Positions 2,013 to 22,725 of a stretch of 64,000 bases of DNA are shown piece by piece (positions within the stretch are counted from its first letter, which is position 1; every line of letters starts with the position of its first letter). Source of the DNA: Acidimicrobiales bacterium (GTDB taxonomy: Bacteria > Actinomycetota > Acidimicrobiia > Acidimicrobiales > JADJXE01); assembly GCA_016716005.1 (NCBI GenBank), contig JADJXE010000001.1:2167733-2231732 (forward strand), read 5' to 3'. A program made the position numbers and the translations under genes. The notes beneath the pieces were generated by a model that was not told the origin of the DNA, made no database searches, and saw nothing but the letters and a program-made list of their open reading frames with translations.

Positions 2013-2025
2013 GCGCCGAGGCCGA

Positions 2026-4816: not shown

Positions 4817-6311
4817 TCGGTCCTACGATGGAGAGGTGGTCGTCGCCGACGCCGACACGCCGAAGGAGGCCTGCGGGGTCTTCGGTGTGTACGCCCCCGG
4901 TCAGCCGGTGGCGCACCTGACGTACCTGGGTCTGTACGCCCTGCAGCACCGCGGCCAGGAGTCGGCGGGCATGTCGGTGAGCGACGGCCGGCTGCTCACC
5001 GTCGTGAAGGACATGGGCCTCGTCTCCAACGCCTTCGACGATCGCACCCTGGCCGCCCTCGCCGGGCACCTGGCCATCGGCCACACCCGCTACTCGACCA
5101 CCGGGTCGAGCACGTGGCAGAACGCCCAGCCGGTGTACCGCGACACCGGCGCCGGTGGCTTCGCCCTCGGCCACAACGGCAACCTGGTGAACACCAACGA
5201 CCTGGCCGTGGAGCTGGGCGCGCTGCCCGGCACCATCACCAGCGACACCGACCTCATCGCCGAGCTGCTGGCGGCCGAGGTGCGCGCCGGCGACGACTCC
5301 GGCGAGTCGCACGACCTCGAGTGGGCCTTGGAGCAGGTGGTCCCCCGCCTGCGCGGGGCCTTCTCCCTCGTGCTCATGGACGAGCGGCGGATCGTGGGCG
5401 TGCGCGACCCCAACGGCTTCCGACCGCTGTGCCTCGGCCGCCTGGGCAGCGGTTGGGTGCTCGCGTCCGAGACCCCGGCCCTCGACATCGTGGGGGCGCA
5501 CTTCGTGCGCGAGCTCGATCCGGGCGAGATGGTGGTCATCGACGCCTCGGGCCCCCGATCGGTCGCCCTGTTCGCCGCCGAGCAGATCGATCCGACGCTC
5601 TGCCTGTTCGAGTTCGTCTACTTCGCCCGCCCCGACAGCCAGCTCTACGGACGCAACGTGCAGGCGGCGCGCAAGCGGATGGGTCGGCTGCTCGCCGAGC
5701 AGGCGCCCCTGTCGCCGGACCCCACCGGCCTCGACCGGCCGGCCATGGTGATGCCGGTGCCCGAGTCGGGCATCCCCGCGGCCCAGGGCTACGCCGAGGC
5801 CAGCGGCATCCCCTACGGCGACGGCCTCGTGAAGAACCGCTACATAGGCCGCACGTTCATCGCTCCCAGCCAGGAGCTGCGCGCCATGGCGGTGCGGATG
5901 AAGCTCAACCCCATCCGAGAGGCCATCGCCGGGAAGCGGCTCGTCGTGGTCGACGACTCGATCGTGCGCGGCACCACCACCCGGGCGATGGTCGCGATGC
6001 TGCGGGAGTCGGGCGCGGCCGAGGTGCACCTGCGGGTGTCGTCGCCGCCCTACCGCTGGCCCTGCTACTACGGCATGGACACGGGTGAGCGGGGTGAGCT
6101 GCTGGCGGCCAACCTCACGGTCGACGAGATCCGCGACTACCTGGGCGTCGACACGCTGTCGTACCTGGCCCTCGACCGCCTGCTCGCGGCCACCGGGGCC
6201 AGCGGCGCGGGCTTCTGCACGGCCTGCCTCACCGGTGAGTACCCGGTGGACCTGCCCGTGCTCGTGGGCAAGCGGGTGCTCGAGGCGGAGGGCGTCGCGG
6301 CGCGTGGGTGA
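4809..6311 (+). CDS. purF: amidophosphoribosyltransferase
   Basis: 500-aa ORF with N-terminal ...[10 protein letters not shown] (catalytic Cys after propeptide), the PRPP loop [12 protein letters not shown], and C-terminal Cys residues (CYYG, CTAC). Start overlaps the purL stop. Confidence 0.95.
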
Positions 6312-7335
6312 GACCTACAAGGCGTCGGGCGTCGACATAGCGGCCGGCGAGGAGGCCGTCGAGCGCATCAAGGCCAAGGTGCGGTCCACCTTCCGCCCGG
6401 AGGTCATCGGCGACATCGGCGGCTTCGGCGGGCTCTTCGCCTTCCCGGCCAAGCGCTACCGCGACCCGGTGCTGGTCTCCACCACGGACGGGGTGGGCAC
6501 CAAGGCGCTGGTCGCCCAGGCGGTCGGTCGCTTCGACACCATCGGCGTCGACCTGGTCGCCATGTGCGTCGACGATCTGGTCTGCCAGGGGGCCGAGCCG
6601 CTCTTCTTCCTCGACTACATCGCCGTGGGCCGCCTCGATCCCGACCAGATCGAGGAGATCGTGGAGGGGGTGGCCGAGGGTTGCCGGCAGGCGCGCTGCG
6701 CCCTCATCGGCGGCGAGATGGCCGAGCACCCCGGCTCCATGGAGCCCGGCGAGTTCGACCTGGTCGGGTTCGCCGTCGGCGTCGTCGAGCGCGAGCGCCT
6801 GGTCGGCCCGCACCGCCCGCGCCGGGGTGACGTGCTGATCGGCCTGCCGTCGCCCGGGCTGCGCTCCAACGGCTACTCCCTCGCCCGACGGGTGCTGCTC
6901 GACGTGGCCGGGCGCCCGCTCGACGGCCCGGCGTTCGACGGCGCCCACACCACGCTGGCCGAGGAGCTGCTCCGCCCGTCGGTGATCTACGCGCCGGCCG
7001 TGGGAGAGCTGCTGCGGCACGTCGACGTGCGCGCCGTGGCCCACGTCACCGGAGGCGGGATCGTGGGGAACGTGGCCCGGGTGCTCCCCCACTCGCTCGA
7101 CGCGGTCGTGCACCGCGGGTCGTGGGAGCCACCTCGCATCTTCGGCGAGATCCAGCGGCTGGGCCACGTCGACGACGAGGAGATGGCTCGCGTGTTCAAC
7201 CTGGGCGTCGGCATGGTGGTGGTGGTGCCGCCGTCCGACGCGCTCCGGGCGCTCGACGTGCTGCGAACCGCCGGCCACCGTGCCATCGAGCTGGGGGAGC
7301 TGGTACCCGGTCACGGCCACGTGCGCATCGTCTGA
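6304..7335 (+). CDS. purM: phosphoribosylformylglycinamidine cyclo-ligase (AIR synthetase)
   Basis: GTG start [23 protein letters not shown]... inside track ORF 6085..7335, with DGVGTK and GGE motifs. Overlaps the purF stop by 8 nt. Confidence 0.95.
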   Translation: MGETYKASGVDIAAGEEAVERIKAKVRSTFRPEVIGDIGGFGGLFAFPAKRYRDPVLVSTTDGVGTKALVAQAVGRFDTIGVDLVAMCVDDLVCQGAEPLFFLDYIAVGRLDPDQIEEIVEGVAEGCRQARCALIGGEMAEHPGSMEPGEFDLVGFAVGVVERERLVGPHRPRRGDVLIGLPSPGLRSNGYSLARRVLLDVAGRPLDGPAFDGAHTTLAEELLRPSVIYAPAVGELLRHVDVRAVAHVTGGGIVGNVARVLPHSLDAVVHRGSWEPPRIFGEIQRLGHVDDEEMARVFNLGVGMVVVVPPSDALRALDVLRTAGHRAIELGELVPGHGHVRIV

Positions 7336-7835: not shown

Positions 7836-8150
7836 CTACTCGTCCCAGCCGATCCGACACCAACTCCGCCGCTCGCAGGTGGGGCAGCGGAGCCAGTGGG
7901 CGTGGCGGCGTACCGGGAGCCACAGGGTGACCGGCAGCATGCGCATCCCCAGGTCGACGAGCGCCAGCCGCGCCCGTGCGCCGCACGCGTCGCACTCGAC
8001 CACCACGGTCCCCTGGCGCCGGGGGCCGGTGGAGAACAGGACGGTCTTGCCCTCGCCGAGCCGTCCGGCCAGCACGTCGGGGGCGACGTCGACCGGTGCC
8101 TCGAACAGCGCCCGCTTGCCCTGCGGGTCGCGCCGTCCGGCCGGGTTCAC
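7836..8150 (-). CDS. small CxxC...CPxC zinc-ribbon-like protein
   Basis: 104 codons at the end of track ORF 7836..9404, with ECDACG...RCPTCE. The GTG start overlaps the TGA of the upstream ParA-like gene (GTGA at 8147-8150). Confidence 0.45.
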   Translation of the reverse strand: MNPAGRRDPQGKRALFEAPVDVAPDVLAGRLGEGKTVLFSTGPRRQGTVVVECDACGARARLALVDLGMRMLPVTLWLPVRRHAHWLRCPTCERRSWCRIGWDE

Positions 8151-8938
8151 GAGGCCTCGGCCGGCCGGGCGGCCAGCGGGTCGCCCAGCTCGTCGACCCG
8201 CTGCGCGAGCGCCCGGTAGGCCTGGGCGGCCGTGGAGCGGGGGGCGTGCTCGAGCACCGAGCGGCCCCGGCCCGGCGCCTCTGCCACCCGGACCGACTTG
8301 GGCACGGGCGGCTCGAGCACCGTGAGGCCGTAGCGGCCGCGGACGGCGTCGAGCACCTCGTGGGCCAACCGGGTGCGGCCGTCGTACAGCGTGGCCACGA
8401 CCCCCAGGACCTCGAGGCCGGGGTTGGTGTACGAGCGCACGTCGTCGACCGTCTCGAGCAGCTGGCCGACGCCCCGGTGCGAGAGGGTCTCGCACTGGAG
8501 GGGCACGAGCACCTCGTGGGCCGCGGTGAGCCCGTTGATGGTGAGGATGCCGAGCGACGGCGGGCAGTCGAGCAGCACGACGTCGTACGCCTCGAGCAGC
8601 GGCGCCAGGGCCCTGGCCACGGCGTACTCGCGGCCGGTGCGGGTGAGCAGGTGCACCTCGGCGCCGGCCAGGTCGATCGTGGCGGGCAGGAGGAACAGGT
8701 CGCCGCGCTTCACCACCACGTCGGCCGGTCGGGCGACCCGGCCCAGGAGCAGGTCGTGCAGCGACCGCTCGAGCAGCTCCGAGTCGATGCCGGTCGACCA
8801 CGTGAGGCAGGCCTGCGGGTCGAGGTCGACCAGGAGCACCCGCCGGCCCCGCTCGGCCAGGGCGGTGCCCAGGGAGTGGACGGTGGTGGTCTTGGCGACG
8901 CCGCCCTTCTGGTTGGCGACGGCGATCACCCTGGCCAT
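8147..8938 (-). CDS. ParA/Soj-family ATPase (orphan, no parB nearby)
   Basis: MARVIAVANQKGGVAKTTTVHSLG... deviant Walker A, VLLVDLDPQ, and DVVLLDCPPSLG. An alternative upstream start lies at 8998. Confidence 0.85.
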   Translation of the reverse strand: MARVIAVANQKGGVAKTTTVHSLGTALAERGRRVLLVDLDPQACLTWSTGIDSELLERSLHDLLLGRVARPADVVVKRGDLFLLPATIDLAGAEVHLLTRTGREYAVARALAPLLEAYDVVLLDCPPSLGILTINGLTAAHEVLVPLQCETLSHRGVGQLLETVDDVRSYTNPGLEVLGVVATLYDGRTRLAHEVLDAVRGRYGLTVLEPPVPKSVRVAEAPGRGRSVLEHAPRSTAAQAYRALAQRVDELGDPLAARPAEAS

Positions 8939-9027
8939 GAGGCGAGTGTACGACGGCCGCTCCGCGCGACCGTGCGGGTCCGTGGTGGCGCCGGTCACCC
9001 GAACCCGGCCCGATACGGTCGGGAGCC

Positions 9028-9582
9028 GTGACCCTCGACGCGCTCCGTGACCACCTGCTCACCCACGCCGTCCGGCGGGGCGAGTTCACCCTCAAGTCGG
9101 GGCGGCGCAGCACGTGGTTCATCGACGGGAAGCAGACCCTCTGCCGGCCCGAGGGGCTGCTGCTGGTGGCCGAGGCCGCCCTCGCCGTGCTCCCGGCGGA
9201 GGCCACCGCCATCGGTGGTCTCACCATGGGCGCCGACCCCATGGCGTTCGGGCTCGCCGGCGTCGCGGCGACCACGGGTCGGATGCTGCGCTCGTTCAGC
9301 ATCCGGAAGGACCCGAAGGACCACGGGGTGACGGGCCGGCTCGCGGGCGCGCTCGAGGCCGGCGACCGAGTCGTGGTCGTCGAGGACGTGGTGAGTCGGG
9401 GCACCTCCGTGCTGGAGGCCGCCCGCGTGGTCCGCGAGCTGGGCGCCGAACCGGTGCTGCTGCTCGCCGTGGTCGACCGGGGCGGTACGTGCGGCGAGCT
9501 GGCCGCGGCCGAGGGGATCCCCTTCCGCCCGCTGCTGACCGCCCCGGACCTGGGGCTCCCCTACGAGGGCGGCGCCGGCTGA
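9028..9582 (+). CDS. pyrE: orotate phosphoribosyltransferase
   Basis: 184-aa ORF with GEFTLKSGRRSTWFIDGK and the PRPP-binding loop RVVVVEDVVSRGTS. Confidence 0.9.
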   Translation: MTLDALRDHLLTHAVRRGEFTLKSGRRSTWFIDGKQTLCRPEGLLLVAEAALAVLPAEATAIGGLTMGADPMAFGLAGVAATTGRMLRSFSIRKDPKDHGVTGRLAGALEAGDRVVVVEDVVSRGTSVLEAARVVRELGAEPVLLLAVVDRGGTCGELAAAEGIPFRPLLTAPDLGLPYEGGAG

Positions 9583-9643
9583 GGGGCGCCCACGGGCACG
9601 CCTCGGGCTGCCGGGGCGCCCGGCTGCGGCTCGACCCCCGCAC

Positions 9644-11077
<1,434 letters not shown>

Positions 11078-11104
<27 letters not shown>

Positions 11105-11150
11105 CCTCGCGCTTTTCAGGCGCGCGCTCTGCCAACTGAGCTACCCGACC
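11078..11150 (-). tRNA. tRNA-Phe (anticodon GAA)
   Basis: Reverse complement GGTCGGGTAGCTCAGTTGGCAGAGCGCGCGCCTGAAAAGCGCGAGGTCACCGGATCGACGCCGGTCCCGACCA folds as a cloverleaf with anticodon loop CTGAAAA. CCA is not encoded. The T-loop reads ATCGACG. Confidence 0.9.
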
Positions 11151-11190
11151 GTGTCACGGCGGGCCGGGGCCCGACCGTGGCGGTTGTTGT

Positions 11191-11268
11191 TGGCGGTCCC
11201 GACGGGATTTGAACCCGCGGCCTCCGGCTTGACAGGCCGGCGTGCACTCCAAACTGCACCACGGGACC
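11191..11268 (-). tRNA. tRNA-Asp (anticodon GTC)
   Basis: Reverse complement GGTCCCGTGGTGCAGTTTGGAGTGCACGCCGGCCTGTCAAGCCGGAGGCCGCGGGTTCAAATCCCGTCGGGACCGCCA has anticodon loop CTGTCAA and an encoded CCA. Confidence 0.95.
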
Positions 11269-11300
11269 AGGTGTGGGTGACGTTGCCGAGCGGTTGAGGT

Positions 11301-11377
11301 TGGGCGCCCCCAACGGGATTCGAACCCGTGCCGCCGCCTTGAAAGGGCGGTGTCCTCGGCCACTAGACGATGGGGGC
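11301..11377 (-). tRNA. tRNA-Glu (anticodon TTC)
   Basis: Reverse complement GCCCCCATCGTCTAGTGGCCGAGGACACCGCCCTTTCAAGGCGGCGGCACGGGTTCGAATCCCGTTGGGGGCGCCCA has anticodon loop CTTTCAA and an encoded CCA. Confidence 0.95.
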
Positions 11378-11439: not shown

Positions 11440-11913
11440 TCAGCCCGGATCGAGCGCGGCCACGACCTGCTCGAGCAACCAGCCCAGGTAGACGTACACG
11501 GCGAGCAGCGGGCCGTCGGGGTCGTCGGGGTCGAGCGCGAGCTCGGTCCCCTCCGAGACGTCGAGCCGGGTGCCGAGGACGAGCCGGAGGTCGTTGATGG
11601 CACCCATGCACACGACCAGCTGCTGCTCGTCGAGCCGGTCGGCGCCCAGGGTCTCCTCCAGCACGTCGAGCGCGTCGAGGCGCCGCCGGAGGAGCTCGTC
11701 GCCCATCAGCCGCTGGTACTCGGCGTCGCGCTCGGCGTCGTCGGGGTAGGCGGTGGGGTAGAGGCGGCGCAGCGACGGGTCGCCGCCCATCACGAGCAGC
11801 TCGCGCAGCTGTGGCACCAGCGAGGCCAGCACCCGGCGCTCCGACTCGGGGAGGCGGATCTCGAACTCGCCCTGGCGGGTCCGGCGGATCCTCCGCCGCG
11901 GGAACGGGGTCAT
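11440..11913 (-). CDS. DUF2017-like protein (conserved ClpS neighbour)
   Basis: Start [29 protein letters not shown]... Acidic C-terminal half. ATGA overlap with the clpS stop. The clpS-DUF2017 pairing is typical of Actinomycetota (from memory). Confidence 0.65.
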
Positions 11914-12215
11914 GTGTCGTGCTGCATGGTGGCCCAGAGGCCGTGCTCGTGGAGCCGGAAGACGTCGAGCTCGGCCTTCTCGCGGGAGCCGCTCGACACC
12001 ACCGCCCGACCCTTCTCGTGGACGTCGAGCATCAGCCGGGTCGCGGTGGGCTTGTCGTAGCCGAACAGCTTCTGGAACACGTAGACGACGTAGGACATGA
12101 GGTTGATGGGGTCGTTCCAGACCAGCACGATCCAGGGGAGGTCGGGGTCGGCGGTGGTGTCGCCGACCGGCGCCTCGATCTCCGCGGGAGCGGTGGACGG
12201 GCCGGGGGTGGGCAC
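11910..12215 (-). CDS. clpS: ATP-dependent Clp protease adaptor ClpS
   Basis: GTG start, 101 aa, with [47 protein letters not shown], a characteristic ClpS core. Confidence 0.9.
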
Positions 12216-12308
12216 GGCACCAGTGTCCCGCGCGTCCCCGGGCCCGACCAGTGCTCCGACCTGCACACGTTGAGCAGCGACCGCGTGGCCCCGTACCATC
12301 CACTCCGT

Positions 12309-13277
12309 ATGGCCCGGCCCGGTCGCCCCCTCGTGCCCTCTCGCCTGGCACACGGCGGCGGGTCGTCCCGGTCGACAGGGGCGCGGGCACCGGCCGCCCG
12401 CCGCCCGCGGGGCCGGGTGGCGGCCTACGTCGCCCTCACCAAGCCCCGCATCATCGAGCTCCTGCTCATCACGACGGTGCCGACGATGGTGGTGGCCCAG
12501 CAGGGCCTCCCCTCGCTCGGCCTGGTGCTGGCCACGCTGGTCGGCGGCACCCTCGCCGCCGGGGGCGCCAACGCGGTGAACATGTACATCGACCGCGACA
12601 TCGACCGGGTCATGCACCGCACCAAGGGCCGTCCGCTGGCGACCGGCGAGCTGGAGCCTCGCCGCGCCCTCCTCTTCGCCCTGGCGCTCGAGGTCGTCGC
12701 CTTCGCCGTGCTGTACGGGTTCGTGAACCTGCTCAGCGCCGCGCTGGCCCTGGGCGCCATGCTCTTCTACGTCTTCGTCTACTCGCTGTGGCTGAAGCGG
12801 ACGTCGCGGCAGAACATCGTCATCGGCGGTGCCGCCGGTGCCGTCCCGGTCCTCATCGGATGGTCGGCCGTCACCGATGGCCTGGGCTGGGCCCCCTGGG
12901 TGCTGTTCGCCCTGATGTTCTTCTGGACGCCACCCCACTTCTGGGCGCTCGCCATCCGCTACACCGACGATTACCGGGCGGCCGACGTGCCGATGCTCCC
13001 CGTGGTCGCCAGCCTCCGACACACCGCAAGCCAGATCCTGGCCTACACGGTGGTCGTGTTCGCCCTGTCGCTGGTGTTCGCGCCGGTCGCGGACCTGGGC
13101 TGGATCTACCTCGGCACCGCCCTCGCCGTCGGGCTGTTGTTCACCGCGCTCGCCGTCGATCTGCGCCGCGAGCCCACGGCCGGCCGAGCCATGCGACTGT
13201 TCACCTTCTCCATCTCCTACGTCACCGTGCTGTTCCTGGCCATGGCGGTCGACGTGCTCGTCCGCCACGGCTGGTGA
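12309..13277 (+). CDS. ctaB: protoheme IX farnesyltransferase (heme O synthase)
   Basis: [40 protein letters not shown] and [12 protein letters not shown] motifs. Start at ATG 12309, or GTG 12417. Confidence 0.9.
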
Positions 13278-13431: not shown

Positions 13432-15057
13432 ATGACGATGACCGAGATGAGACCCGAGGAGGTGGCGGCCCCTGTGGCCGCGCCACCCCCTGAACCGGAG
13501 GTGCTGGCCCAGCCGGCCGGTCTGGCGGGCTGGCTCACCACCACCGACCACAAGCGGATCGGCCTGCTGTATGTGGTCACCGGTCTGCTGTTCCTGCTGG
13601 GGATGCTCGTGCTCACCGGCATCGTCGGCGTCGAGCAGGCCGACCCGGCCACGGGCACGCTGGTCGCGCCCGTCGGCGCCGTCGGCCAGGTCGCCTCTCT
13701 CGCCGCCATCGGCCTCGTGCTCACCGCCGTGGTGCCGATCTGGCTGGGCCTGGCCACCTACCTGGTGCCGCTCCAGGTCGGGGCCCACGGCATCGCCTAC
13801 CCGCGGGCCGCGGCCGCCGGCTACTGGGGCTACCTCCTGTCGGCCTCGCTGCTCCTCGCCAGCTACGCGATGAACGGCGGCCCGGGAGGAGGTGACCCGG
13901 ACGGCGTCGAGCTGTTCCTGCTCGCCCTCGGCCTCCTGGCCGTGTCGCTGCTGCTCGGCTCGATCTGCATCGCGACCACGGCCCTCACCATGCGGGTCGC
14001 CGGGATGGACCTGCGCCAGGTGCCGTTCCAGACCTGGTCGGCGCTGGTGGGCGCGGTGATGCTCATGGTGACCCTGCCCGTGCTCGTCGCGGAGCTGGTC
14101 CTGCTCTACCTCGACCACCACTACGGGCAGGTCTTCCTCGGGGGTGCCGACGGCGTCCTCGGCTACCTCGGGTGGCTGTTCCTGCAGCCGCAGGTGCTGC
14201 TGTTCGCCCTGCCCGCCGTCGGGGTGGTCGCCGACGTGGTGCCCGTGTTCGCGGGCCAGCGCCAGAAGAGCCCCGGGGTGATCCTGGTGGCGATCGGCGC
14301 GCTCGGCGTGCTGGGCTTCGGGGCGTTCCTCCAGACCGGCCTGATCCCCGACGTGCGGACGCAGCCGCTCGCCATCGGCATGACGGTGGCCGCGGTCGTG
14401 CCGGTGCTGGTGCTCCTCGGGCTGTGGGGGCGCACGCTGGCCGCCGGCGCAGCTGCGGCGCGCCTCACGCCCGCACTGCTCTTCGCCCTCACCACCGCCG
14501 CGTTCCTCCTGGTGGCGGTGGCGTGCGGCGCCGTCACCGTGATCGACCCGTTCGACCTTCGGGGCACCACCTGGGACACGGCGGTGCTGTACGCCTTCGT
14601 CGTGGGGGTGGGGGTCACCGGCGCCTTCACGGCCCTGCACTTCTGGGTGCCCAAGATGTCCGGCAGGAAGCTGAGCGTGGGCGCGGCCGCCGCGCAGTGG
14701 TTCGCCGTGCTGCTGGGCGGCCTGCTGCTCGTGGTCCCGTCGCTGATCACCGGCGGGCTCGGACAGCCGGCGGGTGCCGTCGACTACCCGCGCGAGACTG
14801 CTTCGACGTTCCTCAACTCGCTCACCGTCGTCGGGGTGGTGCTGCTGCTGCTCGCCCTGGCGGTGCTGCTGATCGACCTGTTCCGGACCGTGGCCGACCC
14901 GGCCAGCCCGCGCGCAGGGGCCGACCCCTGGCGCGGCCACACCCTCGAGTGGGCCACGTCGTCGCCGCCCCCCTTGGCCGACTTCGACGCCCCGCTTCCG
15001 GCCGTCACGTCCGACCGACCCGTGCTCGACGCCCGTGAGGCGGAGGCCGCGCGATGA
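13432..15057 (+). CDS. cytochrome c oxidase subunit I-like membrane protein lacking the canonical heme/CuB His ligands
   Basis: 541 aa, colinear with the genuine CtaD at 17941 ([47 protein letters not shown]). GHPEVY is replaced by LQPQVL, WAHHMF by AFLQTG, and AHFHY is absent. There is no His in the helix II equivalent. Confidence 0.8.
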
Positions 15058-15659
15058 CCGACACGAGCGACGTCCTGCTGGCCCTGCCCCCGGCCGCTCG
15101 GCCGGCGCGGCCCCGCACCCAGCTGGTGGCCACGGCGCTGGCCGTGGCCGGCGGCGCCATGCTGATCGGCGGGCTGCTCGCCATCTACCTGCACCTGCGC
15201 AGCGCCGCCGGTGGCACCACGGCCTCGTGGCTCCCCGCCGGCGTCTCGATCCCCGGCGTGCCCGCGAACATGGCGCTCGTCACCATCGTGATGACGGTGA
15301 TCACGATGCAGTGGGCGGTCTACGCCATCGCGCGCAACGACCGGCGCAACACCTACGTGGCCCTCGGCCTCACCCTGCTGCTCGGCGTGGCCTTCATCAA
15401 CAACATGGCCTTCGTCTACCAGCGGCTCGAGCTGCCCATCGCCGACTCGGCCTACGCGGTGCTCGTGTACGCCATCACCGGCACGCAGCTGGCGCTGTTC
15501 GTGGCGGCCATGGTCTACGCGGGGGTCGCCGCCTTCCGGGCGCTCGGTGGCGAGTACTCGTCCCGGCAGCCCGAGGGCCTGGCCGCCGCCGCCCTGTTCT
15601 GGCACTTCACCGTCGTCGCCTTCGCCGTGATCTGGGCGTTGGTGTTCGCTCTCAAGTAG
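15054..15659 (+). CDS. cytochrome c oxidase subunit III-like membrane protein (divergent paralogue)
   Basis: 201 aa, colinear with the genuine CtaE at 19937 (LFWHFTVVAFAVIWALVF versus LYWHFVDIVWIVIFTVVY). TGFHGVHV is replaced by TGTQLALF. The ATGA overlap with the preceding ORF implies translational coupling. Confidence 0.75.
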   Translation: MTDTSDVLLALPPAARPARPRTQLVATALAVAGGAMLIGGLLAIYLHLRSAAGGTTASWLPAGVSIPGVPANMALVTIVMTVITMQWAVYAIARNDRRNTYVALGLTLLLGVAFINNMAFVYQRLELPIADSAYAVLVYAITGTQLALFVAAMVYAGVAAFRALGGEYSSRQPEGLAAAALFWHFTVVAFAVIWALVFALK

Positions 15660-15668
15660 GCGCCGCAG

Positions 15669-16736
15669 ATGACCAGCACCGGGATCTTCACGACGGGATC
15701 GAAGCTCTTCTTCGGCATCGCCGCCGCGGCTCTCGCCGGCCTCGTGGTCTGGGGCGTCGGCGCCGACTGGGATCCGCTCGGCAACGTGGCCTTCATCGGA
15801 CTGGCCGCGGCGTCCGGCTTCCTCGGCGGGACCATCATCGCCTTCCGCGACGCCGGTGCCACCGCCGTCGCCGGCGCGCCGGTCACGGCGGCGTCGGGCG
15901 GCCCGGCCGCCTCACCCATCCCCTGGCCCCTGGTCGCTGCGTTCGCCGTGGCCGTGGCGGTGCTCGGCCTGGTCACCGAGCCGCTGGTGCTGATCGGGGG
16001 CCTCGTGCTGCTCGGCATCTCGGTGCTCGAGTGGATGGTGGCCGCCTGGGCCGACGACCTGTCTTCGGACCCCGCGTACAACCGCTCGGTGCGGAACCGG
16101 GTGATGTACCCGATCGAGGTCCCGGTCGCGGCGGTGCTGGTCGCCGCGGTGGTGATCATCGGCTTCTCCCGGCTGCTGCTGGCCATGCCCAAGACCGGTT
16201 CCACCACGGTGTTCGGGATCCTGGGCGCCATCGTGTTCTTCATCGGGATCATGGTCTCGCTGCGCCCGCGCATCAGCGCCAACGTGGTGAGCGTCCTGCT
16301 CGTGGTGGGCGGCATCGGGATCCTCGCGGCCGGCGTCACCGGCGCCGCGGTGGGCGAGCGGGAGATCTCCGCCCACCCCGAGGAGTGGGAGCGCACGGCC
16401 ACCGTCGCCGACATGGCCGCCGCCGATGCCGTGATCGTGCTGAAGGACGGCGAGTTCGACCTCACGCGGATCGAGATCCCCAGGGCGACCACGGTCACCT
16501 TCATCTTCCAGAACGAGGACGAGGCCGAGGCCAACCTCCACCTGCTCGTCGACGGCGACCCGGCCACGCCGCTGCGCACGGGCCCGGTGGCGCAGTCGCT
16601 GACCTTCCGCATCGACATCCCCGGCGAGTACGAGTTCGTGAACGACGCCGACCCCGAGAACGACCGCGGCACCATCGTCGTCATCGGCACCCCACCGAGC
16701 GTCACGACGACCACGACCGCGGCGTCGTCGAACTGA
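15669..16736 (+). CDS. polytopic membrane protein with CtaF-like hairpin and C-terminal cupredoxin-like domain lacking Cu ligands
   Basis: 355 aa. PIPWPLVAAFAVAVAVLGLV...LLGISVLEW resembles the CtaF-like hairpin at the CtaD C-terminus. The C-terminus FDLTRIEIPRATTVTFIFQNED...NLHLLV...PGEYEFVNDADPENDRGTIVV follows the cupredoxin strand pattern but has no Cys/His/Met loop. Confidence 0.65.
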   Translation: MTSTGIFTTGSKLFFGIAAAALAGLVVWGVGADWDPLGNVAFIGLAAASGFLGGTIIAFRDAGATAVAGAPVTAASGGPAASPIPWPLVAAFAVAVAVLGLVTEPLVLIGGLVLLGISVLEWMVAAWADDLSSDPAYNRSVRNRVMYPIEVPVAAVLVAAVVIIGFSRLLLAMPKTGSTTVFGILGAIVFFIGIMVSLRPRISANVVSVLLVVGGIGILAAGVTGAAVGEREISAHPEEWERTATVADMAAADAVIVLKDGEFDLTRIEIPRATTVTFIFQNEDEAEANLHLLVDGDPATPLRTGPVAQSLTFRIDIPGEYEFVNDADPENDRGTIVVIGTPPSVTTTTTAASSN

Positions 16737-16842: not shown

Positions 16843-17922
16843 ATGTCGCGTCGTCGTGACGCCCGCCGGTGGCTGCTGGCCGTCGGCGTCGGGCTGGTGC
16901 TCGTGCTCACGGCCTGTGCCGAGGACGCTCCCCAGGACACCCTCCAGCCCAAGGGCCCCGAGGCGCAGACGATCCACAACCTGATCGTGCCGATCTTCGT
17001 GGTTGCCGGCGTCGTCGGCCTCCTCGTCTTCGCCGCCGTCGCGTTCGTGATGGTGAAGTACCGCGCCGGCAAGTTCCACGCCACCGACGTCCCCGAGCAG
17101 GTGCACGGCAACCCGAAGCTCGAGATCGGCTGGACCATCCTCCCGGCGATCATCATGGCGGCCATCGCCGTGCCGACCGTGAGCGTGATCTTCGACCTGG
17201 CGTCGAAGCCCACGGATGCCATGGAGATCAACGTCGTGGGCCAGCAGTGGTGGTGGGAGTTCGACTACCCGGGCACCAACGTCGTCACCGCCAACGAGAT
17301 CGTGATCCCTGCGGGTGAGCCGGTCGTGGTGAACATCACGTCGCGCGACGTCATCCACTCGTTCTGGGTCCCCGGCCTCAACGGCAAGAAGGACGCCGTA
17401 CCGGGACGCACCTCCAGCATCACGATCCAGGCCGACGAGCCCGGCCGCTACATGGGCGCGTGCACCGAGTACTGCGGCCTCTCGCACGCCAACATGCGCA
17501 TCGTGGCCGTGGCCCTCACGCCCGACGACTTCGACGAGTGGCTCGCGAACCAGGAGACGGCGGCGGCCGCGCCCACCGGCGCCGACGCCCGGGCCGGCCT
17601 CGAGGTCTTCAACGGCCGCGGCTGCGGCGCCTGCCACATGATCGACGGTGCGGGCGTCACCCAGCAGCCGCAGGTGGTGCCGCTGGTGTCGGGTGTCGCG
17701 CCGAACCTCACGCACCTCATGAGCCGCGACGTGTTCGCCGGGGCCATGTTCCCGCTGAAGAACCCCGACGGCACGCTCAACCGTCCGCTGCTCGAGGCCT
17801 GGCTGCGCAACTCGCCGGCCATGAAGCCCATGTATCCGCAGGGGGGGCGGGGCATGCCCGCCCAGGGCCTCACCGAGCAGCAGATCGACGACCTCGTCGC
17901 CTACCTGTCCACGCTGAAGTAG
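16843..17922 (+). CDS. ctaC: cytochrome c oxidase subunit II with fused C-terminal cytochrome c domain (caa3 type), lipoprotein
   Basis: ATG after the GAAGGACGGGAG RBS. Lipobox LVLVLTAC. CuA motif HSFWVP...CTEYCGLSHANM. Heme c motif CGACH with a downstream MP. Confidence 0.93.
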   Translation: MSRRRDARRWLLAVGVGLVLVLTACAEDAPQDTLQPKGPEAQTIHNLIVPIFVVAGVVGLLVFAAVAFVMVKYRAGKFHATDVPEQVHGNPKLEIGWTILPAIIMAAIAVPTVSVIFDLASKPTDAMEINVVGQQWWWEFDYPGTNVVTANEIVIPAGEPVVVNITSRDVIHSFWVPGLNGKKDAVPGRTSSITIQADEPGRYMGACTEYCGLSHANMRIVAVALTPDDFDEWLANQETAAAAPTGADARAGLEVFNGRGCGACHMIDGAGVTQQPQVVPLVSGVAPNLTHLMSRDVFAGAMFPLKNPDGTLNRPLLEAWLRNSPAMKPMYPQGGRGMPAQGLTEQQIDDLVAYLSTLK

Positions 17923-17940: not shown

Positions 17941-19929
17941 ATGGCCATCGTCGAGCAGGACCGCCCCGCCGGCCCCCTCGCCCTCCCAGCGGGTGACGGG
18001 GAGCACCGCGAGCGCGAGCCGCTGGGCGTGTTCTCGCGGCCTGTCCACGCGCGCGGCTGGCGCAGCTGGCTGTTCACCGTCGACCACAAGCGCATCGGGA
18101 TCATGTACGGCGCCGCTGCGCTGTTCTTCCTGATCCTGGGCGGCGTCCCCGCCCTGCTGATCCGGGCCCAGCTGGCCGGACCGAACGGCACCGTGCTCAC
18201 CGCCGACCAGTACAACCAGGTGATGACGATGCACGGCACGGTGATGATCTTCCTGGTCGTCATGCCCATCGGTGCCTGCTTCATCAACTACCTGGTGCCG
18301 CTGCAGATCGGCGCCCGCGACGTGGCCTTCCCCCGGCTGAACGCCCTCAGCTTCTGGACGTTCCTGTTCGGGGGGCTGTTCCTGAACCTCAGCTGGATCC
18401 TGGGCGGCGCGCCCGACGGCGGGTGGTTCTCGTACGCGCCCAACACCGGGGTGGTCTTCTCGCCCACGCACGGCATGGACTTCTGGGCGCTCACCATCAT
18501 CATCACCGGCATCGCCTCGTCGGTCGGCGCCGTCAACCTGATCGTGACGATGCTCAACATGCGGGCGCCGGGCATGTCGCTGATGCGGATGCCGATCTTC
18601 ACGTGGATGGCGCTGGTCACGCAGTTCCTGCTGCTGTTCGCCATCCCCGTGCTGACCGTGGCGGCCTTCCTGCTCTTCTTCGACCGCCGCTTCGGGGCCA
18701 ACTTCTTCGACGTGTCCCAGGGCGCCGACCCGCTGCTGTGGCAGCACCTGTTCTGGATCTTCGGGCACCCCGAGGTGTACCTGATGATCCTCCCGGCGTT
18801 CGGGATCGTGTCCGAGGTCCTGCCGGTCTTCGCCCGCAAGCCGCTGTTCGGCTACCCGTTCGTGGTGTTCTCGGGCGTCGCCATCGCCTTCATGGGCTTC
18901 GGGGTGTGGGCCCACCACATGTTCGCCTCCGGCCTCGGTCCCGTGTCGGTGGCCGCGTTCGCCCTGGCCACCATGTTCATCGCCGTGCCCACCGGCGTGA
19001 AGATCATCAACTGGGTGGCCACCATGTGGGGCGGCCGGCTGAAGTTCGACCCGGCGATGCTCTTCGCCATCGCCCTCGTGCTGCAGTTCACCCTCGGCGG
19101 GCTCTCGGGCGTCACCCACGCCATCGCCCCGGCCGACACCCAGCAGACCGACACCTACTACATCGTCGCCCACTTCCACTACGTGCTGTTCGGCGGCGCC
19201 CTGTTCGGGTTCGTGGCCGGTTGGTACTTCTGGTGGCCGAAGGTGTTCGGCTACAAGCTCAACCGCACCCTGGGTCTCGTGCACTTCTGGTGGATGGTGA
19301 TCGGCTTCAACCTGACCTTCGGGTTCATGCACATCCTCGGCCTGCAGGGCATGCCCCGACGCATCTACACCTACGCCGACGGCATGGGCTGGAACCTGTG
19401 GAACATGGTCAGCACGGCCGGCGCGTTCATCCTGGCGACCAGCTTCATCGTCTTCTTCGTCAACATCTTCGTGAGCCGAAAGCACAAGACCCACGAGGTC
19501 GACCCGTGGGACGCTCGATCGATCGAGTGGATGACGTCGTCGCCGCCGCCGGCCCACAACTTCGACGAGATCCCGGTGGTGCACCACCTCGACGAGTTCT
19601 GGTACCGCAAGTACGCGGAGGACGACGACGGCCAGCTCGTCCAGATCGCCACCGGCGACGAGGTGTACCGCAAGGAGCTGGCGCAGGCCGAGCAGGACCA
19701 CGCGGCCGAGCACATGCACATGCCGTCGGTGTCGTACTGGCCGATCGTGTTCTCGGCCGGACTCCCGCTCGTCGGGCTGGGCATGATCTTCAACCTTGGG
19801 CTGGCCGTGCTCGGCGGCCTGGTCTCGCTGGTCGCCCTGTTCGGCTGGGTGCTCGAGCCGTCCGTGGCCCCCGAGGACTCCCACGGACCCGCCCCGGCGA
19901 GCGAGGAGGAGGCGGTCTCCGTTGGCTGA
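17941..19929 (+). CDS. ctaD: cytochrome c oxidase subunit I with C-terminal two-helix extension
   Basis: All canonical motifs are present: MTMHGTVMIF, WIFGHPEVY, WAHHMF, VAHFHYV. An extra ~120 aa follows PPPAHNFDEIP, containing HMPSVSYWPIVFSAGLPLVGLG... Confidence 0.95.
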   Translation: MAIVEQDRPAGPLALPAGDGEHREREPLGVFSRPVHARGWRSWLFTVDHKRIGIMYGAAALFFLILGGVPALLIRAQLAGPNGTVLTADQYNQVMTMHGTVMIFLVVMPIGACFINYLVPLQIGARDVAFPRLNALSFWTFLFGGLFLNLSWILGGAPDGGWFSYAPNTGVVFSPTHGMDFWALTIIITGIASSVGAVNLIVTMLNMRAPGMSLMRMPIFTWMALVTQFLLLFAIPVLTVAAFLLFFDRRFGANFFDVSQGADPLLWQHLFWIFGHPEVYLMILPAFGIVSEVLPVFARKPLFGYPFVVFSGVAIAFMGFGVWAHHMFASGLGPVSVAAFALATMFIAVPTGVKIINWVATMWGGRLKFDPAMLFAIALVLQFTLGGLSGVTHAIAPADTQQTDTYYIVAHFHYVLFGGALFGFVAGWYFWWPKVFGYKLNRTLGLVHFWWMVIGFNLTFGFMHILGLQGMPRRIYTYADGMGWNLWNMVSTAGAFILATSFIVFFVNIFVSRKHKTHEVDPWDARSIEWMTSSPPPAHNFDEIPVVHHLDEFWYRKYAEDDDGQLVQIATGDEVYRKELAQAEQDHAAEHMHMPSVSYWPIVFSAGLPLVGLGMIFNLGLAVLGGLVSLVALFGWVLEPSVAPEDSHGPAPASEEEAVSVG

Positions 19930-19936: not shown

Positions 19937-20554
19937 ATGCAGATGCCGGCCGCGTACGAGGTGGCCCCCGACGACTTCGGCGAGGGGCACCACACCACCA
20001 CGGGCCTGTCCAACACCAAGCTGGGCATGTGGGCGTTCCTCGGTTCGGAGTGCCTGCTGTTCGGTGGGCTCATCTCCACGTACATGCTCTACCGGGGCCG
20101 TGTGGCCGCCGGGCCCGGGCCCGAGGACGTGTTCGACATCCCGTTCACGTCGATCAGCTCGTTCGTGCTCCTCATGAGCTCGCTCACGATGGTGCTCGCC
20201 GTTGTGTCGATCGCCCAGGGAGACCTCAAGCGCTTCCGCACGTGGGTGCTGACCACCGCCTTCCTCGGGGCCGTCTTCGTGTCCGGGCAGGCCTACGAGT
20301 TCACGGTCTTCTACCGGGAGGGCCTGGGCTTCACCACCAGCCTGTTCAGCTCGTCCTTCTACGTGCTCACCGGGTTCCACGGTGTGCACGTCACCTTCGG
20401 CATCATGATGCTGCTGGCGCTGTTCGGGCTGTCCCTCCGGGGCCGGCTGGGCGTCGGGCAGGCCGAGACGGTCGAGATCGTCGGCCTCTACTGGCACTTC
20501 GTCGACATCGTGTGGATCGTGATCTTCACGGTCGTCTACCTGATCCCCGCCTAG
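19937..20554 (+). CDS. ctaE: cytochrome c oxidase subunit III
   Basis: Start MQMPAAYEV. Carries LGMWAFLGSECLLFGG, TGFHGVHVTFG and LYWHFVDIVW. Confidence 0.92.
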   Translation: MQMPAAYEVAPDDFGEGHHTTTGLSNTKLGMWAFLGSECLLFGGLISTYMLYRGRVAAGPGPEDVFDIPFTSISSFVLLMSSLTMVLAVVSIAQGDLKRFRTWVLTTAFLGAVFVSGQAYEFTVFYREGLGFTTSLFSSSFYVLTGFHGVHVTFGIMMLLALFGLSLRGRLGVGQAETVEIVGLYWHFVDIVWIVIFTVVYLIPA

Positions 20555-20561: not shown

Positions 20562-20948
20562 ATGAGCACCGCCACCGAGACCGAGCAGCCCACCGAGACC
20601 GAGCAGCAGGGCCACCACGAGCCGCCGCCCGAGGCGGAGACCCACGGGTGGGAGATCGAACGGGCGCCGGGCGAGCACGCCCACCCGCCCCACGGCGAGT
20701 ACGTCAAGATCGCCGCCGTCCTGGCGGTGCTGACCGCGATCGAGATCGCGATCTCCTACGTCGACATCGGCCCGGTCTTCATCCCGGCGCTGATGGTGCT
20801 GATGGTGATCAAGTTCGCCCTGGTGGTGCTGTTCTTCATGCACCTGCGCTACGACGCCAAGATCTTCGGCCGGCTGTTCTGGGCCGGCGTCGGCTGCGCC
20901 GTCGCGGTGTACATCGTGATGCTCACCACGTTCCGCTTCTGGGGCTGA
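20562..20948 (+). CDS. ctaF: cytochrome c oxidase subunit IV (prokaryotic COX4/CtaF-type)
   Basis: 128 aa with YVKIAAVLAVLTAIEIAISY...VIKFALVVLFFMHLRYD, typical of small subunit IV. The N-terminus contains a TETEQ direct repeat. Confidence 0.8.
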   Translation: MSTATETEQPTETEQQGHHEPPPEAETHGWEIERAPGEHAHPPHGEYVKIAAVLAVLTAIEIAISYVDIGPVFIPALMVLMVIKFALVVLFFMHLRYDAKIFGRLFWAGVGCAVAVYIVMLTTFRFWG

Positions 20949-20997
20949 GCCGCTCCGCCCCTCCCTGCTCGAACACGGCACCCGGCACACGCGTCCA

Positions 20998-21019
20998 GGG
21001 CCGCCCTCCGGGGCGGCCC
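20998..21019. terminator. GC-rich hairpin between convergent ctaF and ABC-2 permease (candidate bidirectional terminator)
   Basis: GGGCCGCCC-TCCG-GGGCGGCCC is a perfect 9-bp stem with a 4-nt loop. No clear U-tract. Confidence 0.45.
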
Positions 21020-21037
21020 GGTCGCGAGACGGGGCGG

Positions 21038-21766
21038 TCAGTCCCAGCGGAACGTGATCGCGGCCACCGCGGGGGCCAGGACGGCCCAGCCGGCCAGCAC
21101 CAGCCAGGCGGTGGCGGGCACACCGTCGGCGGACCCGATCGTGCCGTGCAGCACCTCGGAGAGCGCGGCCGCGGGCAGCAGCCTGGCCAGCGCCGCGAGC
21201 CCGGCGGGCAGCTCGTCCAGGGGGATCACCATGCCCCCGAGGAGCAGCAGCACGAGGTACAGCCCGTTGAGCGCAGCCAGGTTCACCTCGCCCCGCAGCG
21301 ACCCGGCGAGGGCCAGGCCGATGCCGGCGAAGGCGATGGTGCCCAGCACGATGCCGGCCACGGCCAGGACGGTGCGGCTGCCGGGGCTCCATCCGAGGGC
21401 CAGGGAGATGGGCACCAGCACCACGACCTGGACCCCCTCGAGGGCCACGACCGAGCCCGTCTTGGCCGCCAGCAGTGCCGGCCGTCCCAAGGGGGTCGCC
21501 CCCAGGCGCTTCAGGACGCCGTACTGGCGCTCGAACCCCGTGGCGATGCCCAGGCCGACCATGGCGGTCGACATCACGGCCAGGCCCAGCACGCCTGGGG
21601 CCAGGAAGTCGACCGGGTCCGGCGCGGCCCCCTCCGTGGGCAGGACGTCGACCAGCGAGAAGAAGGCGAGCAGCAGCACCGGGATGCCCAGCGTGAGCAG
21701 CAGCGACTCGCCTCGGCGGAGGGTGAGCACCAGCTCGATGCGCGCCTGCGCCAGGACGGGTCTCAC
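21038..21766 (-). CDS. ABC-2 type transporter permease
   Basis: GTG start VRPVLAQARIELVLTLRRGESLLL... Six hydrophobic segments. GTGA overlap with the upstream ATPase stop. Confidence 0.8.
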   Translation of the reverse strand: MRPVLAQARIELVLTLRRGESLLLTLGIPVLLLAFFSLVDVLPTEGAAPDPVDFLAPGVLGLAVMSTAMVGLGIATGFERQYGVLKRLGATPLGRPALLAAKTGSVVALEGVQVVVLVPISLALGWSPGSRTVLAVAGIVLGTIAFAGIGLALAGSLRGEVNLAALNGLYLVLLLLGGMVIPLDELPAGLAALARLLPAAALSEVLHGTIGSADGVPATAWLVLAGWAVLAPAVAAITFRWD

Positions 21767-22725
21767 CGGCGCCGTCGCCGGGGGCGGCCCGGCGGCGGAG
21801 ACGCCGGCGGCTCGTCGTCCGAGGAGGAGGTGAGGCGGAGGAAGACGTCCTCCAGCCTGCCCCCGGTCCGCAGATCGGTGAGCGGGAGGTCGTGCTGGGC
21901 GAGCCAGGCGGTGAGCGCTGCCACGACCGACGGCGTGCCTGCGGTGGCGACGCGGTAGCGGCCGGAGCCCTCGGCGGTGACCGCGGCGCCGAGCGCGGCG
22001 CCCAGGGCGACCGCGTCGAGGTCGCCGGTGGCCGCGAACCGGAGCTCGGAGGCCTCGGACGCGGCAGCCAGCTGCGCAGGGGTGCCCAGGGCGAGGAGGC
22101 GGCCCCGGTCGACGATCGCCACCCGGTCGGCCACCCGCTCGGCCTCGTCGAGCTCGTGGGTGGTGAGGAGCACGCACACGCCGGCGTCGCGCAGGTCGGT
22201 GATCACGCGGCGGACCACCTGGCGGCCGGCCACGTCGACCCCCGCGGTCGGCTCGTCGAGGAACGCCACCGCGGGGCGGCCCACGAGCGCCAGCGCCAGG
22301 GACAGCCGCTGCTGCTCGCCGCCGGACAGGTGGCGCCACGTGGCGCCGGCGCGACCGGCGAGGCCGACGCGGGCGAGCAGCTCGTCGGGGTCGGTGGGGT
22401 CGTCGTAGTAGGCCGCGAACAGGTGCAGGGACTCCCGGCAGCGGATCCCGGGCATGAGCCCGCCCGACTGGGGCATGACGCCGATGCGGCGCACCACCGC
22501 GGCGTGGTCGCTCACCGGGTCGAGCCCCAGCACCCGCACCGCTCCCCCGTCGGGACGCCGGTACCCCTCGAGGGTCTCGACGGTCGAGGTCTTCCCCGCC
22601 CCGTTCGGCCCGAGGAGCGCCAGCACCTCGCCCGGCTCGACGGAGAGCGACAGGCGGTCGACGGCGGTCAGGTCGCCGTAGCGGACGACCAGGTCGAGCG
22701 CCTCGATCGCGGCAGCACCGGACAC
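21763..22725 (-). CDS. ABC transporter ATP-binding protein (ABC-2/DrrA-like)
   Basis: GTG start VSGAAAIEALDLVVRYG... Has Walker A GPNGAGKTS, signature LSGGEQQRL and Walker B AFLDEPTAGVD. Confidence 0.9.
   Translation of the reverse strand: MSGAAAIEALDLVVRYGDLTAVDRLSLSVEPGEVLALLGPNGAGKTSTVETLEGYRRPDGGAVRVLGLDPVSDHAAVVRRIGVMPQSGGLMPGIRCRESLHLFAAYYDDPTDPDELLARVGLAGRAGATWRHLSGGEQQRLSLALALVGRPAVAFLDEPTAGVDVAGRQVVRRVITDLRDAGVCVLLTTHELDEAERVADRVAIVDRGRLLALGTPAQLAAASEASELRFAATGDLDAVALGAALGAAVTAEGSGRYRVATAGTPSVVAALTAWLAQHDLPLTDLRTGGRLEDVFLRLTSSSDDEPPASPPPGRPRRRRR

Follow-up and report, generated by a model that had tools for sequence, protein, structure and literature searches.

The 64,000-nucleotide stretch of DNA analysed here (termed the window; contig JADJXE010000001.1 of an Acidimicrobiales bacterium, GC content ~73%) carries the genes for a caa3-type cytochrome c oxidase and, adjacent to them, three genes for oxidase-like proteins in which all canonical metal ligands are replaced. 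The three genes are on the + strand, between ctaB (haem O synthase) and the genuine oxidase operon (ctaCDEF). S1 (13432..15057) codes for a subunit-I-like protein of 541 residues with 12 transmembrane (TM) helices. S3 (15054..15659) codes for a subunit-III-like protein of 201 residues with about five TM helices. SX (15669..16736) codes for a protein of 355 residues, which has a core of seven TM helices (residues 1-244; 15669..16400) and a cupredoxin-fold domain with a destroyed type-1 copper loop, followed by a Thr/Ser-rich tail (domain residues ~245-340; 16401..16736). The stop codon of S1 and the start codon of S3 overlap (ATGA at 15054-15057), and a 9-nt spacer precedes SX at 15669. The frames are intact, and the GC content at third codon positions (GC3) is 0.94-0.98, like that of the neighbouring genes. 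The coordinates, the overlap, the spacer, the intact frames and the high GC3 agree with an earlier prediction that was made from the sequence alone (the original prediction). From the alignments described below, we take the three genes to be paralogues of those for an A-family haem-copper oxidase, conserved together as a non-catalytic module. We call this module I'/III'/IV', and not a complete core, because there is no subunit II paralogue. The "complete" copy of the oxidase core of the original prediction thus holds for the I-, III- and IV-like subunits but does not extend to subunit II.

The genes on both sides belong to the genuine oxidase. Directly upstream of S1 is ctaB (12309..13277, + strand; UbiA family), part of a UbiA-type ORF that is in frame from 11811 to 13277. 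Its start is inferred, ATG 12309 being the first possible start that does not run into the divergent clpS; PF01040 is found in the ctaB ortholog of every related locus. Downstream on the + strand are ctaC (16843..17922; subunit II with a CuA domain, a fused cytochrome c and a lipoprotein-type N-terminus), ctaD (17941..19929; subunit I with all ligands, pattern HDNWHEYHHTKDHHRR, and a C-terminal Cyt_c_ox_IV-like hairpin), ctaE (19937..20554; subunit III) and ctaF (20562..20948; caa3-type subunit IV, COX4_pro). Their annotation as genuine oxidase genes was confirmed, since all four products match the expected oxidase models. CtaC (COX2, COX2_TM and Cytochrom_C domains; TIGR02866, 208 bits, cutoff 147.7), CtaD (TIGR02891, 680.6 bits, cutoff 670.75) and CtaF (PF03626, E-value 1e-10; TIGR02229, 42.4 bits, cutoff 37.25) exceed the cutoffs of NCBIfam equivalog or subfamily models. 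CtaE matches PF00510 (E-value 1.9e-19) and the CyoC, QoxC and CtaE models (131-143 bits). The window has gaps of 154 nt after ctaB and 106 nt before ctaC. A promoter/terminator scan, which is uninformative in GC-rich DNA, found no terminator-like sites between the genes. An Rfam search over the window returned only three tRNAs, and no riboswitch or leader was found in the 154-nt gap.

S1 is homologous to subunit I over its whole length. It matches COX1 (PF00115) with an E-value of 1.1e-46 over profile positions 1-435 of 436, and the neighbouring CtaD with 29% identity over the full length (BLAST E-value 7e-58). It aligns nearly end to end with subunit I from mycobacteria, Thermus and Bacillus subtilis, and over most of its length with that from Rhodobacter (E-values ~1e-45 to 1e-39). 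By HMM scores, it belongs with the A family and not with the B or nitric oxide reductase (NOR) lineages; its score for TIGR02891 (225 bits) is far below the cutoff of 670.75. Cytoplasmic-loop motifs common to S1 and the CtaD of caa3/aa3 oxidases are DHKRIG, VPLQxGAxxxAFPR, RxPGM..P.F.W, WxPKxxG and EW..SPPP. The AlphaFold2 (AF2) model of S1 (pLDDT 86.8, pTM 0.89) superposes on solved A-family subunit I structures with Foldseek TM-scores of 0.80-0.86 over 515-551 columns, and according to this model S1 keeps the complete 12-helix fold. Profile-HMM and structural comparison had been proposed as checks together with the original prediction. Both were run; the homology of S1 was confirmed, its fold superposes on that of A-family subunit I and the channel residues are gone. 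In the public annotation, S1 apparently starts five codons later (13432-13446), and a member of 536 residues (P0165) is found in the same 90% cluster.

The ligand columns were read from BLAST and HMMER alignments and from a MAFFT alignment of 122 sequences, using the residue numbering of R. sphaeroides. In S1, the helix II His is replaced by Ala, the first CuB His by Gln, the cross-linked Tyr by Leu and the HH pair by Gln-Thr. Both helix X His are replaced, one by Val/Leu and the other by Tyr/Ala; the register is uncertain by one position here, but there is no His nearby. With Ala on helix II and no His on helix X, bis-His ligation of a low-spin haem is absent, and the columns of the binuclear centre (proximal His and three CuB His) read Q, Q, T, V/L. 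The haem-propionate Arg pair is replaced by Ala-Gly and the Mg-site Asp by Gly. The channel residues are also lost (D132 to Gly, N139 to Ala, E286 to Gln, T359 to Val, K362 to Leu). S1 thus lacks the marks of an A-family oxygen reductase, the cross-linked Tyr and the D- and K-channel residues all being replaced. There are six His in the protein (in DHK, GAHG, DHHYG, LHFW and GHTLEW). None of them is at a ligand column, and all are in motifs that match loop or terminal segments of subunit I. The claim that every canonical metal ligand is replaced, which had been made upon alignment by eye, therefore holds in rigorous alignments. The quoted motif pairs were reproduced as well: MTMHGTVMIF is replaced, FGHPEVY has become LQPQVL, WAHHMF has become AFLQTG, and the AHFHY pair is absent.

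As the canonical haem and copper ligands, the Tyr, the D and K channels and the Arg pair are missing, neither O2 reduction nor proton pumping is possible by the known mechanism. Judged from these columns, the module cannot be an oxidase or an NO reductase, and canonical proton conduction and, in the window genome, a canonical haem or copper site can likewise be excluded. A repurposed proton- or ion-conducting module, one of the roles that the original prediction had considered, is disfavoured by the loss of all five channel residues.

No replacement active site is visible among the conserved positions of S1, and there is no family-specific polar or catalytic motif. Where conservation is peculiar to S1, the residues are Leu, Gly, Ala, Thr, Ser, Ile, Val and Phe, with a single Arg in addition (N-terminal DHKRIG motif). 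Another 55 positions are common to S1 and the real CtaD, most of them occupied by Pro, Gly, Trp or Arg. Going by textbook topology, we take them to lie mainly in cytoplasmic loops and in the C-terminal EW..SPPP tail. We read the shared positions as fold determinants and the S1-specific ones as packing residues. Across otherwise divergent subclades, Gln is seen again and again in columns that used to hold His or Glu (first and second CuB His, E286, haem a3 His; e.g. QQ.Q..Q), perhaps because the binuclear pocket, now empty, is packed with polar side chains.

S3 matches COX3 (PF00510) with an E-value of 4.3e-12 and 46.9 bits, above the cutoff of 23.8, and CtaE with 26% identity (E-value 1e-10). 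Its best NCBIfam match is aa3_CtaE_Actin (51 bits, cutoff 190), and it is far below the cutoff of every NCBIfam equivalog. The LFWHF motif is kept and TGFHGVHV is lost, as had been noticed in the original prediction. The assignment of S1 and S3 as paralogs of the oxidase subunits is thus well founded.

For SX, the AF2 model has helices at residues 9-31, 36-68, 86-102, 105-129, 135-172, 175-198 and 204-228, followed by a seven-stranded beta-sandwich (pLDDT 83-91). Because seven helices and Arg-rich loops fit the positive-inside rule, the N-terminus is tentatively placed in the cytoplasm and the cupredoxin domain outside. The family-invariant residues (K12, R60, D61, E121, W122, D134, P148, E150, P152, S167, R168 and R231) are all in the membrane part, which is the conserved core of the family. 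Window SX has no match to PF12270 (Cyt_c_ox_IV) at E <= 1. Its homolog P0124 (46% identical in the family alignment, 40% by BLASTP) matches this profile with 31.1 bits (cutoff 26.9) over positions 5-124 of 132, and PF12270 is matched by 5 of the 26 SX family members. In addition, hhalign aligned TM3-4 of SX with the PF12270-like C-terminal hairpin of the real CtaD (probability 74%, E-value 2.8e-5). These matches suggest that the first four helices of the SX family are related to the actinobacterial subunit IV. The neighbouring COX4_pro ctaF was tried as the source of the hairpin and was rejected (hhalign probability 0.3%). The "CtaF-like" hairpin of the original prediction can be upheld only in the sense of actinobacterial Cyt_c_ox_IV; the protein has seven helices and is unlike the neighbouring ctaF. 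No match to SX was found among PDB sequences or in NCBIfam, and no structural match to its seven-TM core was obtained, as the Foldseek matches are confined to the cupredoxin domain. The genuine CtaD has a two-helix extension at its C-terminus (residues 585-640; 19693-19860), which corresponds to PF12270 positions 71-126 of 132. With this extension and a separate COX4_pro ctaF, the real enzyme itself combines accessory elements of the Bacillus type with some of the actinobacterial type.

The C-terminal domain of SX (residues 250-338) matches Cupredoxin_1 (PF13473) with an E-value of 4.4e-9. Foldseek matches are plastocyanin, the CuA domains of NosZ and of ba3 oxidase, and Cupredoxin_1 (4hcf), with E-values of ~1e-4. 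The beta-sandwich fold is thus present in window SX, but the type-1 Cys-x(2-4)-His-x(2-5)-Met loop is not. At the loop position, window SX has EFVNDADPENDRG where P0124 has EFFCDVHPEQMRG, so that NDADPEND stands against CDVHPEQM. Asn, Asp and Asp take the places of the ligands Cys, His and Met, leaving the upstream His as the sole ligand; the domain is devoid of Cys. Replacement of the copper loop had been correctly foreseen. As the loop of P0124 is a textbook type-1 copper loop, the domain in the window is a blue-copper domain minus Cys, His and Met. In sequence terms, it is a secondarily degenerated type-1 (plastocyanin-like) domain and not a CuA domain. The domain is optional, being present in 51 of 103 evaluable SX representatives, and the C-x-H-x-M loop is kept in only 8 of these 51. 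The "cupredoxin-patterned" third ORF of the original prediction is therefore confirmed for its fold, but this applies to only about half of the family. Type-1 cupredoxins (plastocyanin, amicyanin, PF13473) share the beta-sandwich, and relatives of SX carry the C-x2-H-x3-4-M loop; unlike these cupredoxins, the SX domain is fused to a seven-TM subunit-IV-like anchor and, in the window, has lost Cys, His and Met. CyoA, subunit II of quinol oxidase, resembles the window domain in having a cupredoxin fold without copper.

One explanation for such extensive loss is that the three genes are decaying duplicates (pseudogenes) or annotation artefacts. Catalytic residues are all lost, as would be the case in a dead duplicate, and the three proteins are more divergent than the real subunits. 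The conservation data refute this explanation, and we give it practically no credence. The frames are intact with high GC3, the AF2 models are confident, and full-length orthologs with 30-47% identity occur in dozens of genomes in the same order and with the same coupling. By the NG86 method, applied to a single close pair (91% amino acid identity) from a genome with 73% GC, omega was 0.136 for S1, 0.141 for S3 and 0.189 for SX, on a level with the real cta genes next to them (0.125 for ctaC, 0.135 for the N-terminus of ctaD and 0.150 for ctaB). In 26 complete loci, every one of the seven genes is intact. The median pairwise identity in these loci is 0.36 for S1, 0.41 for S3 and 0.41 for SX, close to the values for CtaF (0.42) and CtaC (0.47); it is 0.63 for CtaE and 0.67 for CtaD. 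The three proteins therefore evolve like accessory subunits and not like dead genes, about twice as fast as CtaD and CtaE. From these values, the genes are under purifying selection and are not decaying duplicates, which is in line with the original prediction; intactness extends to three isolates (see below).

The position of the set is essentially invariant. We analyzed six loci found via S1 and 70 metagenomic loci found via SX; genes were classified with purpose-built HMMs and counted where the contig is long enough. Upstream of SX, S3 was found in 46 of 46 loci, S1 in 29 of 29, ctaB in 27 of 27 and a divergent ctaA in 19 of 24. Downstream, ctaC was found in 52 of 52 loci, ctaD in 34 of 34, ctaE and ctaF in 25 of 25, and ctaG in 18 of 20. 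Every metagenomic locus with enough flank has the gene order ctaB, S1, S3, SX, ctaCDEF(G). According to the gene calls from six genomes, the spacings within S1-S3-SX are -4 to +9 nt, and those between SX and ctaC are -8 to +106 nt. An unbiased check starting from the real CtaD found the set at the same place in three of three complete isolate genomes (Iamia majanohamensis, Actinospongicola halichondriae and Aquihabitans sp. McL0605). The single gene string with ctaB and the real caa3 operon, which had been proposed for the window, is confirmed and recurs in the relatives examined. The SX-based loci were ascertained with a narrow SX alignment, broader ones being too weakly conserved. They establish that SX is always in a caa3 context, not that every caa3 operon from Acidimicrobiia has the set. 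A scan of genome contigs with a single S1, which is insensitive, returned eight loci. Seven of these (L007-L012 and L014) are genuine CtaDs from Solirubrobacterales, Streptomyces, Mycobacteriales and a Limnocylindria (Chloroflexota) bin, while L013 is a less-degenerate S1 (see below). In locus L004, from a long-read metagenome-assembled genome (MAG), two ORFs of 396 and 297 residues (14536-16616) take the place of one genuine ctaD, owing either to a frameshift sequencing error or to a real split of the gene.

In most relatives, ctaA is divergent between clpS and ctaB, and ctaG follows ctaF. The window cluster is without both (11440-13277, 20948-21802), and tblastn found no match to ctaA or ctaG anywhere in the 64 kb; presumably, they are encoded elsewhere in the genome. 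Aquihabitans (L087) likewise lacks ctaG at the position after ctaF.

The synteny bears on the possibility that the set took on a new function unrelated to caa3, for instance in transport, in sensing or in the binding of lipids or quinones, and shares no more than a transcript with the respiratory genes. The family is old and has many members: 1480 representatives at 50% identity were obtained when SX was used for an exhaustive profile search, 341 of them with E <= 1e-30. It also evolves faster than the catalytic subunits, SX has invariant charged residues (including E121, D134, E150, R168 and R231), and Gln is recurrent at former His positions of S1, all of which would suit a new function. We nevertheless consider this improbable. 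In the examined loci, the set was found nowhere but between ctaB and ctaC. S1 lacks any family-specific polar or catalytic motif, and the destruction of the canonical D and K pathways speaks against a conserved proton or ion path.

The cofactor state was analyzed across the family. The S1 search returned about 100 non-canonical relatives with 30-66% identity, which rank ahead of any genuine CtaD. By the taxon names supplied with the sequences, they include Acidimicrobiales, Acidimicrobiaceae, Iamia, Ilumatobacter and Actinomycetota. None of 101 non-canonical relatives has the CuB/haem a3 His set. The two low-spin haem His are both present in 34, one is present in 12, and 55 have none. K362 is lost in all 101; D132, N139 and the R481/R482 pair are lost in nearly all. 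The same picture emerged from 44 further S1 proteins from fetched loci (41 independent metagenomic loci), where the binuclear set is again found in none (0 of 44), and a single His is aligned at the first CuB column in five (L064, L070, L071, L073 and L075). Among the isolates, S1 from I. majanohamensis has the helix II His only, that from A. halichondriae is bis-His, and that from Aquihabitans sp. McL0605 has neither. Some relatives keep the bis-His site, and some have a type-1 copper loop where the window has NDADPEND. This pattern suggests a redox-active family ancestor from which cofactors were then lost repeatedly or progressively. Repeated loss of the bis-His and copper sites in turn implies that the selected function is independent of cofactors.

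Several relatives are less degenerate. Intact type-1 copper loops are found in SX from L083 (JAABUN010000454.1; CDVHPAM), L084 (CDVHPEM) and P0124 (CDVHPEQM). L083 has, in addition, an S1 in which neither low-spin haem His is missing and the D132 equivalent is present; this S1 has the shortest S1 branch. These three are the best candidates for a form that is still redox-active. In L013 (MAG DASZOE010000393.1 from Acidimicrobiales), the subunit-I-like gene directly after ctaB (2125-3843) scores 399 bits with the S1 profile and 406 bits with the CtaD profile. It keeps the helix II His and HH in helix X and has no CuB His motifs, and has the look of a transitional form that leads from CtaD to S1.

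It could be argued that the module as such is still redox-active, binding haem or copper via non-canonical Gln, Tyr or Asp and serving caa3 as an electron-entry or storage module. L083, with bis-His and a blue-copper loop, and P0124 and L084, with the loop alone, plausibly carry electrons, and Gln and Tyr are indeed found at some former ligand columns in the window. There, however, the six haem/CuB His, the Arg pair and three of the four type-1 copper ligands (Cys, His and Met) are gone. Furthermore, the replacements (Ala, Gln, Thr, Val/Leu, Asn, Asp) differ between subclades, which is unlike a real alternative site. We thus regard redox activity of the window module as very improbable.

The most likely reading, to which we give about an even chance, is that S1, S3 and SX form a I'/III'/IV' subcomplex, made together with caa3 and attached to it as a structural partner of the pseudoenzyme type. 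In this scenario, the three proteins would be made together from translationally coupled genes (spacings of -4 to +9 nt), which would be transcribed with the caa3 genes. They would assemble into a I'/III'/IV' membrane subcomplex, and this would dock onto the genuine caa3 oxidase as a structural partner. The family would descend from a redox-active ancestor, with repeated loss of the bis-His haem site and the blue-copper loop. There is precedent for such a partnership. In cytochrome bd, CydB is a cofactor-free paralog of CydA that acts as a structural partner, and core proteins of the bc1 complex are inactive and peptidase-like. The logic is the same, a duplicated subunit being kept without cofactors as a structural partner, but this is an analogy only. 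CydB belongs to an unrelated superfamily and its partnership has been shown structurally, while that of S1, S3 and SX is putative; also, a set of three subunits was duplicated here, not one.

A more specific version is tentative, and we would lean against it if forced to decide. It assumes that the caa3 oxidase from Acidimicrobiia is a hetero-assembly of a catalytic CtaCDEF core and a full-size cofactor-free pseudo-core, the bis-His/blue-copper relatives representing the intermediate of a former extra electron-entry branch. If true, this would be the first haem-copper oxidase scaffold kept purely as a structural or regulatory element.

Several points weigh against a docked subcomplex. Everything beyond conservation and co-location is inferred from gene arrangement and analogy. 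Omega rests on one pair, evaluated with a simple estimator in a GC-rich genome. The unbiased check comprises three isolates only, while the 70 metagenomic loci were ascertained through SX. The gaps of 154 nt and 106 nt leave room for separate promoters. Finally, given the frequent retention of the bis-His site, the core function of the family could be haem-dependent, with the window lineage doing something different.

The main competitor is a biogenesis scaffold, i.e. a transient assembly platform for the real oxidase that is absent from the mature enzyme. It might, for example, retain haem O/A, CtaC or early intermediates of CtaD and mimic the core for factors such as CtaG. In nearly all loci, the module has the haem O/A synthase genes (ctaA, ctaB) on one side and the structural genes on the other, with ctaG at the operon end. 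The parts shared by S1 and CtaD, mainly cytoplasmic loops and the C-terminal tail, are surfaces that an assembly factor might recognise, and the bis-His site of many relatives could hold haem transiently. A scaffold is nevertheless unlikely in our view, though it deserves more attention than a new function. The window lineage has lost every His ligand with its constraint unchanged, so that a haem-holding role is dispensable. That three large membrane proteins are so tightly coupled in translation points to subunits in stoichiometric amounts and not to a catalytic chaperone. Also, subunit I paralogs are not known among the assembly factors of oxidases.

As to the origin of the module, a neighbour-joining tree (100 bootstraps) has S1 within the A family on a long branch, which is sister neither to the caa3 CtaD clade from Acidimicrobiia, which has 98% support on its own, nor to the classical actinobacterial aa3 CtaD. 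Actinobacterial links are provided by S3, which matches best to the actinobacterial CtaE model, and by the SX family, some members of which match the actinobacteria-specific subunit IV domain. The set may have arisen either by duplication within the operon or from an older aa3 enzyme.

With respect to described systems, the module is closest to caa3/aa3 oxidases. It is related to CtaD, CtaE and the actinobacterial CtaF by homology (PF00115, PF00510 and, via relatives, PF12270) and by its location in a cta operon. It differs from them in that S1 keeps the complete fold without the ligands of haem a, haem a3 and CuB, the Tyr cross-link, the D/K channels, the Arg pair and the Mg-site Asp. It also has no subunit II partner, and its scores are far below NCBIfam equivalog cutoffs. 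Unlike the actinobacterial CtaF, SX has three extra helices and sometimes a cupredoxin domain. To our knowledge, all NOR-type and divergent haem-copper oxidase families keep both haems and a metal-binding binuclear centre, and a subunit I with two haems and a metal is common to every described family. S1 has no binuclear centre and, in the window genome, no haem ligand at all. Partial losses are on record: according to a preprint (bioRxiv 10.1101/2021.10.15.464467), which shows the haems and the metal centre for the canonical NOR site, cNOR, qNOR, eNOR, sNOR, gNOR and nNOR lack the active-site Tyr, and cNOR and qNOR lack the proton channels. The preprint also describes gNOR as having a CuA-less cupredoxin subunit and one altered active-site His.

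The original prediction had stated that the set cannot be assigned to a described system, and this remains so. S1, S3 and SX are not accepted by any NCBIfam model, and the Pfam matches are to generic superfamily domains only. No ligand-less subunit I family was found described in the literature searched, the coverage of which is incomplete, so that a prior description is possible. This literature, including a survey of novel haem-copper oxidase families and a paper on cytochrome oxidase evolution that deals with CtaA from Acidimicrobiaceae, contains no such description. We file S1, S3 and SX as a previously undescribed cofactor-free clade of the haem-copper oxidase superfamily. The clade extends over the class Acidimicrobiia; its members have the entire fold but no binuclear centre and, in many lineages, no cofactor at all. 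It is a natural experiment in which the role as a scaffold is set apart from catalysis, and in which the stepwise decay of a respiratory enzyme into a pseudoenzyme can be followed. It raises a testable question on supercomplex architecture in abundant but little-studied actinobacteria from soil, marine habitats and activated sludge. Three cultured and fully sequenced hosts together span the bis-His, single-His and no-His states. There is also a consequence for annotation. Database labels are "cbb3-type cytochrome c oxidase subunit I" (PGAP) and "cytochrome c oxidase subunit 1" (IMG). Surveys of terminal oxidases in metagenomes will accordingly overcount, ascribing to Acidimicrobiia a second or a high-affinity oxidase that is not there.

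A few observations concern the remainder of the window. The N-terminus of CtaC (MSRRRDARRWLLAVGVGLVLVLTAC) resembles a lipoprotein signal peptide with a lipobox Cys (16843-16930). Its ATG at 16843 is preceded by GGGAG, and a longer ORF initiated by TTG at 16747 probably does not have the real start. Among the scanned ORFs of the window, which is only partly annotated, a second respiratory complex (qcr or ACIII) was not seen. The other-strand genes upstream are clpS and a DUF2017 gene. Just upstream of this pair is a cluster of tRNA-Phe(GAA), tRNA-Asp(GUC) and tRNA-Glu(UUC) (11077-11377, - strand). Downstream are genes for an ABC-2 exporter, serS and sdhC. The flanks (157-7335, 8147-11104 and 24291-33418) are of a housekeeping type, with purC, purL, purF, a purM-like gene and a gene for a ParA-like ATPase. 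Further flank genes are sdhC and those for a malic enzyme with an ACT domain, an MMPL transporter and an ABC system of the glycine-betaine type.

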